From a virus (taxonomy: Duplodnaviria > Heunggongvirae > Uroviricota > Caudoviricetes), in IMG/VR virus record IMGVR_UViG_2651869781_000013: DNA of 36,125 nt. The stretch is one strand, 5' to 3'. The notes under the pieces were generated by a model. The model did not search any database and was not told the DNA's origin. It was given only the letters and a program-made list of their open reading frames with translations. A program made the translations under genes and the position numbers. Shown here one piece after another: positions 24,878 to 36,125 of the stretch; the first letter of the stretch is position 1, and each line of letters starts with the position of its first letter.

Positions 24878-24911
24878 GTTTAAACTGGCTGTCGGAACAG
24901 CCAGTTTAAAC
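24878..24911. terminator. palindrome, probable bidirectional terminator between Q and the cargo operon
   Basis: Perfect 14-bp arms GTTTAAACTGGCTG / CAGCCAGTTTAAAC around a 6-nt loop; overlaps the stop codon of ORF 24906..25754. Confidence 0.5.
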
Positions 24912-25754
24912 ACCGGCACCAATGAAATCGCCATATGAATCTTCTTCAAGGCTGATGTATTCTACCCTCCATTGATCCATCCGCCTCAATGCATACAGGG
25001 AGAAATGAGTATCAGCAACAGCTATGCACGTATTCAATTCTATAAGTTCTGAATGCCCCAAGGTTGGATCACCATAAAACTTATAAAACAAAGCCTTTAG
25101 ATCAGAACATGTTTGTTCAGCCGCTCTTCTGGCATCGGGGCCACCTTCAGTTGCATCATAAACAACATTGATAGAAAGCTCATATGGTATGCCTTCCTCA
25201 AGATCGTTAAATCTTTCTTCGCCCAAATCGAAAAAAACTCCGATCAAATGCTCTGCGTTTGTGGCGATAATATCCGCAACTTCTTTTTCGAAAATAAACT
25301 TTTTATCCTCGTCGTAAGCCCGCAAGCGCTCTTCAAACGAGTTAGGAAACGCTGGACGACCATACTTAGCAGCTAACCATTGCTTAAGAGCTTGTTTCTC
25401 TTCTGTGCTAATGGAGAATGCTGGATCGTTTTCCTCACAACAGAAAGCTTCTTTAGGAAAGATGACTTTCCTTTCATGCCGGAGCTCTACTGCATTCTTC
25501 TTCGCACTTTCTGGGTTTTCAAAACATAGATCGAGTATTCTCGGATGCTTAGCTCTTTTCATCCTGCTTGACCCCTTTTTCAAGGGGCCAAACATCAGTT
25601 CCACGTTTTTTTCTGAATTACTCTGTAAATCACAATCATGCGTTATAACTACAACTTTATGGTTCGTTTCATCAGGCTGCAGAATTCCAAGTGAAACGGC
25701 ATCATCATGTTTAAGTACATGCCCCTGACGCCATGATGTTCCTCGTACCAACAT
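24906..25754 (-). CDS. cargo operon gene 3, hypothetical protein
   Basis: 282 aa, ATG 9 nt after the gene 2 stop; AT-rich; no Walker A, HEXXH or other motif recognised. Confidence 0.55.
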   Translation of the reverse strand: MLVRGTSWRQGHVLKHDDAVSLGILQPDETNHKVVVITHDCDLQSNSEKNVELMFGPLKKGSSRMKRAKHPRILDLCFENPESAKKNAVELRHERKVIFPKEAFCCEENDPAFSISTEEKQALKQWLAAKYGRPAFPNSFEERLRAYDEDKKFIFEKEVADIIATNAEHLIGVFFDLGEERFNDLEEGIPYELSINVVYDATEGGPDARRAAEQTCSDLKALFYKFYGDPTLGHSELIELNTCIAVADTHFSLYALRRMDQWRVEYISLEEDSYGDFIGAGV

Positions 25755-25763
25755 AAATGTGAT

Positions 25764-26426
25764 TTATTCCTCTACCGTTCCAGGAATTGAAATAGATGAC
25801 TTCCAATCATCTGTCGGTTTCGCCTTGCTTGCTAAGTAATTGGCCGATTCAGCAGCAGCATTCATCGCTTTAGCTTCATCAATCAATACCTGAACTGCCC
25901 TATTCCAATCCTCACCTTCTTTTACTACGTCCATTAATGACTTACCATTAAATGCTTTCATTTTCACCAATAGCTTCGCATCATGGAGTCCAGCTTTGGA
26001 AAAAGAGTCAGCGACATTACTAAGGTTGATAATGAATTGCACTTTTGAAGCATCATCAGGCTGGTTCTCCCCTGACAACCATTTATAGAGAGCCTGCCGA
26101 GTTATCCCCAAATCCTTTGCCAGTTCTGACATTGATGGAGACAGCACTTCTCGAATATTAGCTAAATGTTGGGCAACATTCCTGACATCAACCTCAGGAG
26201 AAATTGCAGGCGTGTACGTTGATTCTATGGAATCAAATGCAAACTGAACCCTTGGCTGAACATACTGACGCCATTGCTTATAAGCATTTACAGGGTATGA
26301 AGCCCCCGTACCAACTAATAGTAAAGATGCGGCGACAGCAACAACACCTGATACACATGAGCTTGACTGCAAATTTGGAGAATATCGATCTACAGAGCCT
26401 ATGCTTCCGGTGGGAATTGCATACAT
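25764..26426 (-). CDS. cargo operon gene 2, HTH (XRE-type) protein with N-terminal hydrophobic segment
   Basis: 220 aa from ATG 26426 with RBS GGAGGT, 20 nt after the gene 1 stop; HTH SMSELAKDLGITRQALYKWLSGE; hydrophobic stretch VSGVVAVAASLLLVGTGA. Confidence 0.6.
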   Translation of the reverse strand: MYAIPTGSIGSVDRYSPNLQSSSCVSGVVAVAASLLLVGTGASYPVNAYKQWRQYVQPRVQFAFDSIESTYTPAISPEVDVRNVAQHLANIREVLSPSMSELAKDLGITRQALYKWLSGENQPDDASKVQFIINLSNVADSFSKAGLHDAKLLVKMKAFNGKSLMDVVKEGEDWNRAVQVLIDEAKAMNAAAESANYLASKAKPTDDWKSSISIPGTVEE

Positions 26427-26445
26427 TTTAGTCACCTCCGTTGTT

Positions 26446-27255
26446 TCAGTGCCATTTAGTACGGGCAAAATCTGAAACCATGCCTTCAAATGCTTCTTTA
26501 ACTTTACTATGCAACGAAAGAATCTGTTTTTCAATTAACTGCAAATCAGTTGACATGTTGCCTTCAACATAATGATCTGTATCAATTATTGCGTGCATAC
26601 GATGCTCTGTGTTACTAAATCTCGGCAACGGCAGTAAACCATTAGGAATCATATCTGGCGGAAAACCTAGCTGACCATTCATCTTATGTATTCGTGAAAC
26701 CATAAATCCATTAGGGATCAATGGCTCAACACGTGTCTGATATACGGACTCTTGTATAGACTGTATTGGCGTCCATCCGAAATCAACACCATGAAGTTCC
26801 TTTACAAGATACTGCTCAATTGTTTCGCTTTTCTCAGGAAACACAGCATCCAAATATCGAAGCCCAATCCGACTTAACAGCGATGGCTTAGCAAATTCTA
26901 GAACTTTGCTCAGACCAAGTATCAATGACGAGATGAAAGATACATGGTTATCATAATATGTTGTATGGAACGTAATGAAATCGTTGCCTAAAACAAAACC
27001 AGATCTTCTATCTGCATCAATCATCAACCAACTTGTCACAGGCTCAAATGAATGTACCGGTGGCTCATTGGGGTTTTTTATTTCAAATTTCAACTGAGTT
27101 GTATTGGAAACCTCAAATAAAGGAAATCCCTCAACTCTTAGCGCATCTTGTATGTCTGGAACATACTTACTCATTGCAGCTATTGGAGTAAACTTTACCT
27201 GTACCAATGCATAGTAAACGGGCGCATTGGACATACGTTCGCTGTTAGTACTCAT
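26446..27255 (-). CDS. cargo operon gene 1, hypothetical protein (possibly TIGR04255-like, unverified)
   Basis: 269 aa, ATG with strong RBS AGGAGG; AT-rich; N-terminus MSNAPVYYALVQVKF resembles a recalled family signature; no catalytic motif recognised. Confidence 0.6.
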   Translation of the reverse strand: MSTNSERMSNAPVYYALVQVKFTPIAAMSKYVPDIQDALRVEGFPLFEVSNTTQLKFEIKNPNEPPVHSFEPVTSWLMIDADRRSGFVLGNDFITFHTTYYDNHVSFISSLILGLSKVLEFAKPSLLSRIGLRYLDAVFPEKSETIEQYLVKELHGVDFGWTPIQSIQESVYQTRVEPLIPNGFMVSRIHKMNGQLGFPPDMIPNGLLPLPRFSNTEHRMHAIIDTDHYVEGNMSTDLQLIEKQILSLHSKVKEAFEGMVSDFARTKWH

Positions 27256-32508: not shown

Positions 32509-33018
32509 TCACAGCAAACCGAATGAAGCACCGAGGCCAGTCACGGTATCAACTGCACTCGCCATCGCAGGATTAGCCTGTAAACGGGCCTGCAATGAAA
32601 CAGCAGCCAGCGCCATCAGTCGTGTTACAGAGTTAATGCTGCTGATAGCATCACGACGACCGGCACTAGTTTTTACATCACCAGATACCGCACCTGCTGC
32701 AACACGTCCGATCTCTGCAGTTGCGCTCATGACGTAATGCGGCAGTTTCTCTTTTGCAACCTCATTAATCGGTACACATGGCAGGCAGTGAATCTGTGCC
32801 AGAAAACCATCTACCAGCGTTGAATCTTCAGTCAGATCGGTAAGCAGCCAGATTTCTGGTGCGGTTAATAAATGAGGCTGAGCTGGGTTCAGCTTGTTCC
32901 GCAGAATCTGCACATTCATGCCTGCACGTTCTGCCAGTTGCACCAGATTGTGGCGCAGTGCAAATGCACGACAGGCTTCATCAAAATGTGGATGTTTGGA
33001 AACTTGGTAATCAAACAT
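32509..33018 (-). CDS. cII: CII-like lysogeny-establishment activator (phage 186 type)
   Basis: 169 aa from ATG 33018: [24 protein letters not shown]...QILRNKLNP; closely resembles recalled 186 CII. Confidence 0.85.
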
Positions 33019-33050
33019 GGTCAATGCCTCTGATGTATTTCAGAATCGAA

Positions 33051-33272
33051 CTAATTAAGGTTTAGATTGCATTCTGAAAGCGCATCAACGGTCATGGCTG
33101 CTATGTTGATCATCACTTTTTCGCGTTTTTTATCTTTGCGCAAACGGTGACGGATAAGGCGTCCATCAGCCAACATGTCATTGATGGTATCGATGGACAG
33201 TCCTGTCAGCTCGCTATAGCGTTCAATAGTCACATGAGGCGTGGTAAGAGTGATTGAAATGTTAGGTCTCAT
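33051..33272 (-). CDS. apl: Apl/Cox-like excisionase and early repressor
   Basis: 73-aa basic protein, first gene of the early operon immediately upstream of cII. Confidence 0.65.
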
Positions 33273-33397
33273 GATGCAACATTCCTCGTTTAATGATGAT
33301 TAATCAGGACGAATACGGATCGTTTGTATTTTGTGAACACCATAAACATACGATCGCACTGTGAAATCGTCAAGATAAAAGTTCACTTGGAGTGACC
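33273..33397. promoter_or_regulatory. lysis-lysogeny switch region (divergently arranged apl and cI)
   Basis: 125-bp AT-rich interval between the apl and cI starts with repeated TGTGAA/GTTCAC elements; exact operators and promoters not resolved. Confidence 0.4.
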
Positions 33398-33967
33398 ATG
33401 AATTTGGAGAAAGGCGGACGAGGCGCTATAGAGCGCATGGTAGAAGCTTATGGATTCAAAACTCGACAGGCGTTGTGCGATCATTTAGGAATCTCTAAAA
33501 GTACACTCGCTACACGCTACATGCGTGACTCATTCCCAGCAGAATGGGTAATCCAGTGCGCCCTTGAAACGGGCACCTCGCTTAATTGGCTCACAACTGG
33601 ACATGGTTCAAAGCAAACTTCAGGTAATACAAATACGATGGAAGTTGCTAAATATGTATTATCTGATGGTGCCTTGCGTGAAGACGGTTTTTATATTTTT
33701 GATAAGGGATTTCTACCCTCTACGTTTAAAAAACCTTTTGTCATCACAGATAACAATTCTGAATTTATTTGTGATAAAGAATTTGATGATATACGTGATG
33801 GTAAATGGGTAATAAGTATTGATGGCGAAATAACAATCCGCGACATTACTCGTTTACCCGGTGGAAGAATCTTCGTTGAAGGTGGAAACAGATCCTTCGA
33901 GTGCAAGATAGAAGATGTTGAAATAATTGGAAAAATTATAAGTTTAACAATTAAGTACGTTAGGTAA
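33398..33967 (+). CDS. cI: CI-like immunity repressor
   Basis: 189 aa from ATG 33398; N-terminal HTH (LGISKSTLATRYMRD); position as in 186. Confidence 0.65.
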   Translation: MNLEKGGRGAIERMVEAYGFKTRQALCDHLGISKSTLATRYMRDSFPAEWVIQCALETGTSLNWLTTGHGSKQTSGNTNTMEVAKYVLSDGALREDGFYIFDKGFLPSTFKKPFVITDNNSEFICDKEFDDIRDGKWVISIDGEITIRDITRLPGGRIFVEGGNRSFECKIEDVEIIGKIISLTIKYVR

Positions 33968-33982
33968 TACCGGGAGGAAACT

Positions 33983-34174
33983 ATGCTTGGTAAGGTATTT
34001 TTTGTGGTTTTATCATGCTCTTTGTTATTAAACCCACTAACTACCTATGCTAAAAATTATCCTTGTTCTGGGAAAAAGGGAGGTGTCTCTCACTGTACCT
34101 CCGATGGAAAGTTCGTTTGCAATGATGGAACTATTAGTAAATCAAAAAAAATCTGTACTAAAAACTCGCGATAA
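33983..34174 (+). CDS. small secreted cysteine-containing protein (moron)
   Basis: 63 aa, RBS GGAGG; signal peptide [23 protein letters not shown]; basic mature part with 4 Cys; AT-rich. Confidence 0.5.
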
Positions 34175-34360
34175 TTTTTGCTTTTATATCTGCGCCTAAT
34201 ATAACAATGAGCCGCAGGCTAACCGCAAAAGTCACATACTCACATAGCAAAAAATAGCCAACTTCATTATGGCTTCAGTGAGATGTATGGTCGCAAGATT
34301 TCATACATTGACACTGGTTATACATACAGTAAAAATGCTCTCTATTGGAGGGCATTTTTT

Positions 34361-35392
34361 ATGGCAGTACGAAAACTCACCACAGGAAAATGGCTTTGCG
34401 AATGTTACCCCGCCGGACGTAGTGGGCGTCGTGTGCGTAAACAATTCGCCACCAAAGGCGAAGCACTGGCTTTTGAGCGTCACACGATGGAAGAAACCGA
34501 AGCAAAGCCCTGGCTGGGCGAATCAGTAGATCGTCGAACCCTGAAAGACGTGGTTGAGCTATGGTTCAAACTACATGGTAAATCTCTGACTGCTGGGCAG
34601 CATGTCTATGACAAATTGCTGCTGATGGTTGACGCTCTGGGCAATCCCCTTGCAACCGATCTCACATCTAAAATGTTTGCCCATTATCGAGATAAACGAC
34701 TGACAGGTGAGATCTACTTCAGCGAGAAATGGAAGAAAGGGGCCAGCCCGGTCACCATTAACCTGGAGCAAAGCTATCTAAGTAGTGTTTTTAGCGAACT
34801 ATCCCGCCTGGGCGAATGGTCGTATCCAAACCCACTGGAGAACATGCGAAAATTCACCATCGCAGAAAAAGAGATGGCATGGCTTACCCATGAGCAGATT
34901 GTTGAACTGCTGGATGATTGCAAACGTCAGGACCCAATTCTGGCACTGGTAGTCAAGATATGCTTAAGCACAGGCGCACGCTGGCGAGAAGCAATAAACC
35001 TTACCCGATCACAGGTGACCAAATACCGAATTACCTTTGTAAGAACGAAGGGGAAGAAAAACAGAAGCATCCCTATCAGTAAAGAGCTTTATGAAGAGAT
35101 CATGGCGCTTGATGGGTTCAATTTCTTCACAGACTGCTATTTTCAATTTTTATCCGTGATGGAAAAAACGTCTATCGTGCTCCCTCGCGGTCAACTTACA
35201 CACGTTCTGCGTCATACGTTTGCGGCGCATTTCATGATGTCGGGTGGAAACATCCTTGCTTTGCAAAAAATCCTCGGACATCACGACATAAAAATGACTA
35301 TGCGTTATGCTCATCTATCACCTGATCACTTAGAGACAGCTCTTCGTTTCAATCCACTAGCAACTTTGGATGTTACTAAATCAGATTCTTAA
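34361..35392 (+). CDS. int: tyrosine integrase (P2/186 family)
   Basis: 343 aa from ATG 34361; C-terminal motifs R...HxLRHT...Y (LTHVLRHTFA ... MTMRYAHL); adjacent to attL. Confidence 0.85.
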   Translation: MAVRKLTTGKWLCECYPAGRSGRRVRKQFATKGEALAFERHTMEETEAKPWLGESVDRRTLKDVVELWFKLHGKSLTAGQHVYDKLLLMVDALGNPLATDLTSKMFAHYRDKRLTGEIYFSEKWKKGASPVTINLEQSYLSSVFSELSRLGEWSYPNPLENMRKFTIAEKEMAWLTHEQIVELLDDCKRQDPILALVVKICLSTGARWREAINLTRSQVTKYRITFVRTKGKKNRSIPISKELYEEIMALDGFNFFTDCYFQFLSVMEKTSIVLPRGQLTHVLRHTFAAHFMMSGGNILALQKILGHHDIKMTMRYAHLSPDHLETALRFNPLATLDVTKSDS

Positions 35393-35402
35393 AGGTTCAA
35401 GC

Positions 35403-36125
35403 ATGGTTAAGTTTTTGTTTCAATTCCCAATATTCGACTTCTCCTTAACATTTGATATTATCGAGACGTTAATCACTCATAGCGAATCATCAATCGCTAA
35501 GGGTATAGCAGAATATAAAGACAAAGGACCTGAAGAATATATAATTGAAATATCTCCGGAAGATGGTGTATATCAGTCAATTGATCATTACATGGGACTC
35601 ACCAGCTCATCGCTAGATCTCGATGAAATGTTTTTAGAATACTACCCAAGTATTATCCGCAGGTCAGTATTCTTAACTATATTCGGAATTTTTGAGCACG
35701 AAATAGAAAAATTCTGTAACAACTTTGCTAATAGACATCATTCTCCTATAAATGTTTCAGATCTCAAAGGAAGTGGATTTGAGAGGAGTCATCTATTTAT
35801 CAAAAAAATGATAGGGATGAAGTCAACATCCCACTATTCGAATATCAAAAAAATAACAAAATTAAGAAACAGTTGTGCGCATAATGATGCAAAATACTTA
35901 GAAAACGATGGGCAAAATATTAAAAGCATTATTGAACTTATAGAAAAATATCCTGATTTTTTTAAAAAAGATGGAAAACAGGTCCTATTTATGGAGGGCT
36001 CGTTAAGCATGATCTTGAACTCATTCAAAGAGTATCTTTCTGATGTTGAAAGAGCCTTAGATGAATTCGAAAAACAAAGCACTAGTGGCGACAAAGTGGC
36101 GGCAGCGGTTGGCATTACCCCGTAA
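35403..36125 (+). CDS. hypothetical AT-rich cargo protein with possible HEPN Rx4H motif
   Basis: 240 aa from ATG 35403 (alternative ATG 35370 inside the int 3' end); motif KLRNSCAHN; last about 13 codons cross the attL core. Confidence 0.45.
   Translation: MVKFLFQFPIFDFSLTFDIIETLITHSESSIAKGIAEYKDKGPEEYIIEISPEDGVYQSIDHYMGLTSSSLDLDEMFLEYYPSIIRRSVFLTIFGIFEHEIEKFCNNFANRHHSPINVSDLKGSGFERSHLFIKKMIGMKSTSHYSNIKKITKLRNSCAHNDAKYLENDGQNIKSIIELIEKYPDFFKKDGKQVLFMEGSLSMILNSFKEYLSDVERALDEFEKQSTSGDKVAAAVGITP
36086..36107. repeat. attL core (prophage left junction)
   Basis: TGGCGACAAAGTGGCGGCAGCG, 21/22 identical to 2834-2855. Confidence 0.7.

Follow-up and report, generated by a model that had tools for sequence, protein, structure and literature searches.

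We found that a 63-codon open reading frame between the repressor gene cI and the integrase gene int of a 186-like prophage encodes a protein of the YdcA family. The family is already catalogued and uncharacterised, and this prophage-borne copy is a new member of it. Judged by its sequence features, the reading frame is a genuine gene for an exported-type, basic peptide with four cysteines. As a whole, its product is best explained as a periplasmic binding or adaptor mini-protein of lysogens that is most likely protective, and we give this reading a probability of about 0.5. We infer the expression, the disulfides, the binding target and the phenotype of the prophage protein.

The gene and its place in the prophage

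The window, that is, the whole 36,125-nt stretch of DNA that was analysed, is a P2/186-like prophage adjoining the host genes ybjM and ybjL. Its early region is like that of phage 186, with Apl-like, CII, Fil, Dam and gpA genes. The features around the reading frame are the following.

33254..33282, + strand: putative pL lysogenic promoter (-35 TTGAAA 33254-33259, 17-nt spacer, -10 CAACAT 33277-33282)
33345..33373, - strand: pR-like lytic promoter facing pL (TTGACG, 17 nt, TATGTT; 9/12 in the consensus scan)
33398..33967, + strand: cI immunity repressor gene of the 186 type (Pfam Phage_CI_repr, E = 3e-33; Phage_CI_C, E = 1e-28)
33972..33977, + strand: Shine-Dalgarno sequence GGGAGG of the YdcA-family reading frame, read off the sequence, 5 nt before the ATG
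33983..34174, + strand: YdcA-family gene (ATG 33983, stop 34172-34174, 63 aa)
33983-34051, + strand: predicted signal peptide, codons 1-23 of the YdcA-family gene
34052-34171, + strand: predicted mature 40-aa peptide, within the YdcA-family gene
34175..34276, + strand: 3' spacer of the cargo unit; homology to relatives with other cargo resumes only at about 34277
34277..34360, + strand: conserved block upstream of int, with a promoter-like site followed by a hairpin
34308-34336, + strand: promoter-like site (TTGACA 34308-34313, 17 nt, AAAAAT 34331-34336; 10/12 matches)
34331-34359, + strand: hairpin that contains the int Shine-Dalgarno sequence GGAGGG (34347-34352) and ends in a U-run
34361..35392, + strand: P2-type tyrosine integrase gene int (Pfam Int_N, E = 3e-32; Phage_integrase, E = 4e-22)
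35403..36125, + strand: AT-rich accessory reading frame of 240 aa between int and the prophage end (phrog_21382, E = 3e-9)

The preliminary description of this DNA had proposed a 63-aa reading frame with a good ribosome-binding site, encoding a typical signal peptide and a basic 40-residue mature peptide with four cysteines in AT-rich DNA, and these points were borne out. The ATG is located 15 nt downstream of the cI stop codon (33965-33967) and is preceded by GGGAGG at a distance of 5 nt. The predicted signal peptide has the n-region MLGK, a hydrophobic core, the helix breaker P18 and the end N-P-L-T-T-Y-A|K, and AlphaFold2 (AF2) predicts a helix at residues 3-15. Ala23, the -1 residue of the cleavage site, is invariant in one family alignment (A1) and conserved in at least 90% of the other (A2), and a hydrophobic N-terminus ending in Ala is found in all aligned YdcA members. 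The predicted mature peptide of 40 aa has a mass of 4265 Da, a pI of 9.64, a net charge of about +7 and four Cys. The GC content of the reading frame is 35.4% against 51.4% for the window, and the AT-rich block spans the 3' half of cI, the reading frame and the spacer.

The putative pL was located by alignment to 186, in which it matches the annotated -35 and -10 elements of pL column for column; the consensus scan did not pick it up. The pL block is also conserved in two other relatives. The position of the pR-like promoter, beside the start of cI, is that of pR in 186. An alternative GTG start for cI is present at 33392, and PGAP labels the gene 'phage repressor protein CI' in identical genomes. 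The start of int was corrected to the ATG at 34361, and int shares 94-95% nucleotide identity with integrases of Klebsiella and Escherichia P2-like phages. The 240-aa accessory reading frame sits where the 186 lysogenic operon has orf69 and is separate from the YdcA gene. Its GC content is 29-36%, and it gives a weak HEPN match (E = 0.0055) and Abi-like matches, with no PADLOC or NCBIfam match. No pair of att direct repeats joins the left and right ends of the window, so attR should lie beyond the window end.

In phage 186, cI and int directly adjoin, with the stop of the former overlapping the start of the latter, and the 186 record annotates one lysogenic operon consisting of pL/pE, cI, int, orf69 and a terminator. 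The YdcA-family reading frame is therefore an insertion. The gene is missing at the same site in 186, its GC content is 35% against 51%, and it lies downstream of the pL equivalent; by these sequence features, the prophage ydcA is a cargo (moron) gene. The cargo unit extends from 33968 to 34276 (309 bp), since relatives with other cargo align again from about 34277. RNA structure in the 3' spacer (34175..34276) was not significant (z = -1.85), and an Rfam scan of 33000-35000 gave no RNA family.

The block upstream of int is kept whatever cargo precedes it, and the stems of its hairpin differ in sequence between phages yet remain complementary. The hairpin in the window folds with -17.5 kcal/mol (z = -5.75), and 0/200 shuffles fold as well. 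From these features, the hairpin with its U-run probably terminates or attenuates the transcript of cI and the cargo and gates translation of int; YdcA would share the expression level of cI, not that of int. The preliminary description had placed the gene on a lysogenic cI-int transcript. Its position in the lysogenic operon stands, because the gene follows a pL equivalent, begins 15 nt after cI and is separated from it by no terminator-like site. Transcription may, however, largely stop at the hairpin before int, and a cI-ydcA unit fits better.

The slot between cI and int is occupied as follows.

This window, REL606 and BL21: YdcA
E. coli-type prophages L006-L009: YdcA, then a KAP NTPase (PADLOC candidate PDC-S20, E = 1e-171)
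Hafnia prophage L014: YdcA, then a 347-aa protein with no assigned function
Klebsiella phage 4LV2017: a 349-aa hypothetical protein
Escherichia phage vB_EcoM-813R9: PD-Lambda-1 (E = 3e-120)
Haemophilus HP2 and S2 (P2-like): YdcA, then orf1(S)

Among these occupants, PD-Lambda-1 and the candidate PDC-S20 are anti-phage genes of relatives. The order of cI followed by YdcA recurs in prophages of E. coli, Hafnia, Yersinia and Haemophilus, and a P2-like prophage of Iodobacter has an HTH repressor directly 5' of YdcA. In HP2 and S2, the YdcA homolog is a 60-aa reading frame without annotation whose ATG overlaps the cI stop, and the product of the following orf1(S) is secreted and has a tRNA_anti-like OB fold. 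The idea that YdcA and a downstream partner form a conserved two-gene module was considered and rejected: orf1(S) of HP2 and the downstream protein in Moraxella bovoculi are unrelated (E = 1.0), and the downstream partners differ at other loci too. Among the P2 defence hotspots of a 2026 survey, the integrase-primase interval is a minor one with 8% of the systems and integrase-att another with 3%; YdcA is not mentioned in that survey (PMC13586616). When the prophage YdcA was searched against PADLOC-DB v2, zero families matched at E <= 1e-3, and in the PHROG scan no PHROG of known function matched.

The 309-bp cargo unit is present in 632 of 5426 complete E. coli genomes (~12%), nearly always as one chromosomal copy. 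At least 80% of the unit is found in 590 genomes, and YdcA alone is the usual layout in E. coli. Among the enterobacterial phage records of the phage collection, none contains the unit or a homolog of the gene. An identical protein is encoded in REL606, where the prophage is intact (ECB_RS23350), and in BL21, where the prophage is a degraded remnant in which cI-YdcA-int is still kept.

The YdcA family and selection on the gene

The preliminary description did not recognise the family, which is YdcA (NF007463, PF27300, PHROG 6000), a name that PGAP had already given. The 63-aa protein scores 116.1 bits against NCBIfam NF007463 (PRK10040.1-2; cut-off 93), which covers residues 5-63 of 63, and the sister models NF007462 and NF007464 also match. 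phrog_6000, whose function is not assigned, matches the protein end to end (E = 5e-34), and homologs carry the precomputed Pfam assignment PF27300 'YdcA'. The protein is identical to RefSeq WP_001321204.1, the CDS of which is named 'YdcA family protein' or 'hypothetical protein' by PGAP, and positions 33392-34400 of the window are 100% identical to many E. coli chromosomes.

Other assignments were rejected. In a Pfam scan with a set that does not hold PF27300, the sole match was a sub-threshold GULLO2-like one (E = 0.068), which we regard as chance, and the NCBIfam lpg1681_fam match (E = 0.11) is noise. The UniRef cluster name 'Conjugal transfer protein' does not suit the family, whose homologs occur on just 58 of 72,556 plasmids, mostly of Acinetobacter and Rhizobium. 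A metal site via His37 is unlikely, since Moraxella, Acinetobacter and Rhizobiales members have S, A, R, Y or K-containing motifs instead and the Legionella protein Dis2, described below, has Tyr at that position.

Since an exhaustive profile search of 1.84 billion representatives gave 451 YdcA clusters at 50% identity, the family is small but genuine. It ranges over Alpha-, Beta- and Gammaproteobacteria. The family motif PCSGxKGG[IV]xxC...F[VI]CxDGxxSxSKxxC is invariant or nearly so, including C28, C38, C46 and C58 (each invariant or conserved in at least 90%), and further conserved positions are K32, G33, G34, F44, D48, G49, S52, S54 and K55. Our survey of the family covered 80 species-level loci and 149 representatives out of the 451 clusters. 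P2-family markers were found at 13 of the 80 loci and at none of the other 67. Since most members are chromosomal and E. coli K-12 has its own ydcA, YdcA is not intrinsically a phage-exclusion family.

The K-12 protein (b1419, 57 aa) belongs to the same curated-HMM family as the prophage protein and shares with it an Ala-ended signal peptide and the four-Cys motif. The two are 51% identical overall and about 70% identical in the mature region, whereas their signal peptides differ, and the prophage protein has the higher net charge (+7). K-12 ydcA is a chromosomal gene adjoining rydC and hokB, whereas the copy in the window is prophage cargo on the lysogenic operon. In the literature, YdcA is described as a predicted periplasmic protein of 57 aa, with no function given. 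Our literature search found no paper that ties YdcA to prophages, Dis2 or T6SS.

Selection was assessed as pN/pS against the alleles of the E. coli (L006), Hafnia (L014) and Yersinia (L020) prophages over 27 alignable core codons. In the mature core, pN was 0.03-0.05 with synonymous sites saturated (pS ~0.87), and the signal-peptide codons of the same alleles vary freely (pN 0.40-0.57). By this comparison, the mature core of the prophage YdcA is under very strong purifying selection. A conserved core behind a freely diverging signal peptide points to an exported protein with a tightly constrained mature part.

Other settings of the YdcA domain and its probable relation to Dis2

About 20 of the 80 species-level loci encode a variant of 132-140 aa in which the YdcA domain is followed by a low-complexity linker and a Cys-containing tail. 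At the loci checked, this long variant sits within T6SS clusters. The order in Pantoea is tssF, tssG, tssE, a gene for a 156-aa protein, the long ydcA and tssA/vasL; TssE is upstream of the long YdcA in L051, L059, L064 and L087, VasL/ImpA_N is downstream of it in L051, L065 and L077, and a T5orf172/MUG113 protein follows it in ten loci. Nuclease fusions were found in 5 of the 149 representatives (Endonuclease_NS in three, SNase in one and a PLD-type nuclease in one), and the three classes of secreted nuclease are unrelated superfamilies. An additional fusion to Endonuclease_NS, beyond the 149 representatives, was found at locus L060. The other fusions among the representatives are to VasL (1), DUF4124 (2) and PBCV_basic_adap (2), and six proteins have two or three YdcA repeats. 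In view of these fusions and long variants, the YdcA domain behaves as an N-terminal extracytoplasmic head that bears varied tails. Such a head could tether its tails to a fixed place in the envelope, or it could bind polyanions such as DNA; the pattern fits either. The net charge of the core domain in the window (+7) is the highest among the representatives examined, whose median is +3.

The AF2 model of the YdcA-family protein has a mean pLDDT of 79.5, with values of about 90 at residues 31-50. This model and the family profile pick the same PDB protein, Dis2 (Lpg0823) of the Legionella Dot/Icm T4SS (chain AN of 7MUC and 7MUD). In the profile search of the PDB, Dis2 was the top match with signal peptides included (E = 2e-4) and was still the top match with a mature-only profile (E = 0.15), where both lobes align. 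In Foldseek, it ranked first (probability 0.98, E = 0.08, 39% identity over 38 columns). The mature peptide also aligned by BLASTP with both lobes of a Dis2-like protein (lobe 1, E = 3e-5; lobe 2, E = 2e-4). When compared by hhalign with an alignment of 25 Dis2 sequences, the mature domains reached 80% probability (E = 1.4e-5), and the value with signal peptides was 95.5% (E = 1.5e-8). PF27300 is already assigned to several Dis2 homologs. Taken together, homology between YdcA and Dis2 is probable, and we hold it with good confidence. No other probable relative of YdcA has a characterised structure.

Each lobe of Dis2 is thus a probable remote homolog of YdcA, with the common motif C-x-x-x-GG[IV]-x-x-C...G-x-x-V-C-N-[DN]-G-x-x-S. 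Dis2 and the prophage YdcA are both exported, disulfide-stabilised and periplasmic, which for YdcA is a prediction. From the signal peptide, and by analogy with the five disulfides of Dis2, YdcA would be located in the periplasm and hold disulfides of its own. The differences are also clear. Dis2 has two lobes with ten invariant Cys, which form five disulfides in the cryo-EM density, whereas the protein in the window is one free-standing lobe with four Cys. Dis2 is not basic, whereas the prophage YdcA is very basic; and Dis2 is a stoichiometric (13-copy) part of the T4SS, whereas the window has no T4SS genes. In the T4SS, Dis2 is turned towards the outer membrane and touches the outer-membrane lipoproteins DotC, DotD and DotK (PMC8486379, PMC12716638). 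It is dispensable, has no function assigned and has been called Legionellales-specific without obvious homologs (PMC12716638). Given this probable kinship, a domain that many Proteobacteria have would be the building block of a 'Legionella-specific' T4SS subunit.

Proposed role in the lysogen and alternative explanations

We propose that the prophage ydcA is transcribed with cI from the lysogenic promoter and would therefore be made continuously in lysogens, and that the hairpin with a U-run before int probably ends or attenuates the cI-ydcA transcript. The mini-protein would be exported by the Sec pathway, its signal peptide would be cut after Ala23, and two disulfide bonds would hold the basic 40-residue mature peptide together in the periplasm. 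The YdcA domain may function as an extracytoplasmic binding or adaptor module. The free-standing prophage protein, which would be binding-only, would most likely occupy a polyanionic or outer-membrane-proximal target in the periplasm of the lysogen. Candidates for this target are incoming DNA and an envelope site that DNA-injecting machines use. The lysogen would thereby be protected, in an exclusion-type lysogenic conversion. This proposal draws on the genes that share the slot in relatives, on where Dis2 sits in the T4SS, on the nuclease fusions and T6SS neighbourhoods, and on the charge. A role of the prophage YdcA in lysogenic conversion or exclusion is plausible.

Several findings speak against it. 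Most YdcA genes are ordinary chromosomal ones (67 of the 80 loci are without P2 markers), no PADLOC defence model and no PHROG of known function matched, and Dis2 itself is dispensable. The nuclease fusions are few, and they fit DNA binding and simple tethering alike.

Two groups of known phage genes resemble the proposed system. Lambda rexAB, which is co-transcribed with cI, P2 old, tin and fun, and the mycobacteriophage genes between integrase and repressor are lysogenically expressed cargo. The likeness is one of position and of logic, with an accessory gene that rides the repressor transcript and would be made only in lysogens; there is no sequence kinship, and those proteins are cytoplasmic or in the inner membrane, whereas the prophage YdcA is predicted to be periplasmic. 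T4 Sp and Imm and the lipoproteins Cor and Llp are superinfection-exclusion proteins of the periplasm or envelope. Like them, the prophage YdcA is small, phage-encoded and, by prediction, exported, and it would act in the envelope of the carrier cell; however, the PHROG scan found no homology to them, and chromosomal orthologs of YdcA, unlike theirs, are widespread.

Should the proposed role be correct, a widespread periplasmic family that includes a core K-12 gene would gain a first function, and the catalogue of prophage-encoded protection would gain a periplasmic member. The nuclease fusions and T6SS neighbourhoods provide concrete hypotheses for what the YdcA domain binds. Since BL21 and REL606 have the identical gene, the prophage YdcA is readily testable.

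A wider extension of the proposal, which we consider unlikely, is that YdcA serves trans-envelope machines in general as a docking module, either outer-membrane-proximal or DNA-binding (as a T4SS subunit, in T6SS cluster proteins and as a tether of secreted nucleases), and that the free-standing copies on prophage repressor transcripts are a new periplasmic class of superinfection-exclusion or decoy proteins. Free YdcA would then intercept incoming DNA or block the docking site of injecting machines. If this were true, about 12% of E. coli genomes (BL21 and REL606 among them) and the Haemophilus phages HP2 and S2 would carry such a factor.

The main rival to the protective reading is that the prophage provides a second, constitutive copy of the host periplasmic YdcA and acts as a fitness or stress factor under acid, organic acid or envelope stress. 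This is possible, and we hold it only tentatively. The mature region is about 70% identical to that of the chromosomal K-12 protein, the family is mostly chromosomal and no defence model matched. E. coli W becomes sensitive to 3-hydroxypropionate when ydcA is deleted, and acid induction of the gene via YdcI has been reported (PMC7642389). According to the literature, ydcA is also up-regulated on entry to a persister-rich state. Because the family is mostly chromosomal and E. coli has its own ydcA, with published phenotypes limited to 3-hydroxypropionate and acid, a housekeeping envelope role would be equally natural. However, the reported ydcA phenotypes are indirect, the slot is shared with bona fide or candidate defence genes in relatives, and the prophage copy lies at the basic extreme of the family, which suggests specialisation. 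If the gene is merely an extra copy of a stress protein, it would be ordinary lysogenic cargo.

It is improbable that YdcA serves the variable defence gene located downstream of it in relatives (the KAP NTPase/PDC-S20, the Hafnia 347-aa protein or HP2 orf1(S)) as an accessory or sensor subunit and is an orphan in this prophage after loss of the partner. Another cargo gene does lie directly after YdcA in L006-L009, L014 and HP2, but these partners are unrelated to one another, and a peptide in the periplasm is unlikely to pair with an NTPase in the cytoplasm. Furthermore, YdcA without a partner is the usual layout in E. coli (at least 80% of the unit is present in 590 genomes), and strong purifying selection has been kept.

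The reading frame may also be a hitch-hiker that is unexpressed or functionless in this prophage, in accordance with the original annotation of REL606, which apparently lacks the gene, to judge by its late-numbered tag ECB_RS23350. This is very improbable in the face of purifying selection on the mature core despite saturated synonymous divergence, a good Shine-Dalgarno sequence and start codon, retention even in the degraded BL21 remnant and the same position in prophages of distant hosts.

We give hardly any credence to a secreted antimicrobial, bacteriocin-like or signalling peptide directed against competitors: the product is small, cationic, disulfide-rich and defensin-like, but there are no adjacent immunity, maturation or dedicated export genes, Sec export stops at the periplasm, many Proteobacteria, E. 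coli K-12 among them, have core chromosomal orthologs, and the relatives are structural or fusion modules. Equally remote is an outer-membrane lipoprotein processed at Cys12 (VLS-C) and not by signal peptidase I: residues 9-12, V-L-S-C, are loosely lipobox-like, but the lipobox pattern [LVI][ASTVI][GAS]C was rejected here, as VLSC lacks conservation (position 12 is L, F, V, I, M or A in homologs, or a Cys in the non-lipobox contexts LLIC and ILVC) and is too near the N-terminus, with a hydrophobic stretch of just 7 residues, whereas Ala23 at -1 of the type I cleavage site is invariant or nearly so.

YdcA domain in other secretion-related proteins

The YdcA domain is found, directly after the signal peptide, fused to three unrelated types of secreted nuclease, namely Endonuclease_NS, staphylococcal-type SNase and PLD-type. 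Tandem arrays of two or three YdcA repeats occur in other family members (P0199, P0207), and some members from Betaproteobacteria carry a C-terminal tail resembling PBCV_basic_adap (CxCxxxxxCxGPRGGxYC). In addition, enterobacterial type VI secretion clusters contain a YdcA-domain protein of 132-140 aa in the gene order tssF-tssG-tssE-x-YdcA-tssA/vasL. This long variant is composed of a YdcA head, an S/T/K-rich linker and the C-terminal motif QPTCAPLYM..PGYTHLPIC. It is followed in ten species by a T5orf172/MUG113 protein of 414 aa; among the family representatives there is one fusion of YdcA to VasL. The proteins and loci are as follows.

YdcA-nuclease fusions: family representatives P0321, P0296, P0249 and P0315; locus L060, 4989-5936
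Long YdcA variant (132-140 aa): locus L077, 4917-5333
Long YdcA variant, other loci: L035, L051-L054, L057-L059, L064-L067, L072, L082-L085, L087, L095
Dis2: PDB 7MUC/7MUD, chain AN (alignment A7)

Dis2 (Lpg0823), a subunit of the Legionella Dot/Icm T4SS, has been described as Legionellales-specific and without structural relatives (PMC12716638). Dis2 appears to be a tandemly duplicated form of the YdcA domain, which is itself widespread. A few Dis2 homologues already score with PF27300.

Block preceding int and the junction in cI

34277-34360: block preceding int, with a promoter-like site and then a hairpin, conserved in many P2/186-like prophages

The block is kept in these prophages irrespective of the cargo upstream; phage 186 lacks it. 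The promoter-like site reads TTGACA, 17 nt, AAAAAT, and the hairpin lies downstream of it (-17.5 kcal/mol, z = -5.75). The Shine-Dalgarno sequence of int (GGAGGG) is sequestered within the hairpin, and the U-run at the hairpin end touches the int ATG (34361). The stems vary in sequence among phages and retain complementarity. The block looks like a terminator or a translational gate for int.

Since the 3' half of cI (33600-33967, C-terminal domain) has 32-37% GC, AT-rich like the downstream cargo, whereas the N-terminal HTH half has 44-50% GC, the mosaic junction may fall inside cI, not at its stop codon.

Prophage ends and B strains

Host sequence occupies the window's left end.

291-665: ybjM (Pfam YbjM, E = 7e-53)
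935-2620: ybjL-type Asp-Al_Ex/TrkA_C permease

No pair of att direct repeats joins the two window ends, which places attR beyond the right end. A protein identical to the YdcA protein of the window is encoded in BL21 (L099) and REL606 (L101, ECB_RS23350). The rcdA-ybjL site of REL606 holds an intact prophage; BL21 (TaKaRa) has a degraded remnant in which gpA and cII are truncated and cI-YdcA-int is still kept. The late-numbered locus tag in REL606 suggests that the original annotation did not include the ORF, which older omics analyses have therefore probably overlooked.

Other cargo of the prophage

24906-27255, minus strand: cargo region of three ORFs, flanked by the portal gene (Q) and the replication gene (A)
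35403-36125: AT-rich 240-aa ORF (29-36% GC) between int and the prophage end

The Q-A interval is the main P2 defence hotspot. At this place REL606 has a retron St85-type system. The ORFs in the window encode 282 aa (no matches), 256 aa (weak HTH_3 match) and 269 aa; the last matches the TIGR04255 family at E = 2e-52. PADLOC matched none of the three, which may constitute an unrecognised defence system.

The 240-aa ORF occupies the orf69 position of 186, in the integrase-att hotspot of a 2026 survey of P2 defence hotspots in NAR (PMC13586616). It matches phrog_21382 (3e-9) and, weakly, HEPN (RiboL-PSP, E = 0.0055) and Abi-like families, with no match in PADLOC or NCBIfam, and is a candidate for an uncharacterised abortive-infection gene. 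The small ORFs at this position in REL606 and JNQH498 are different ones.
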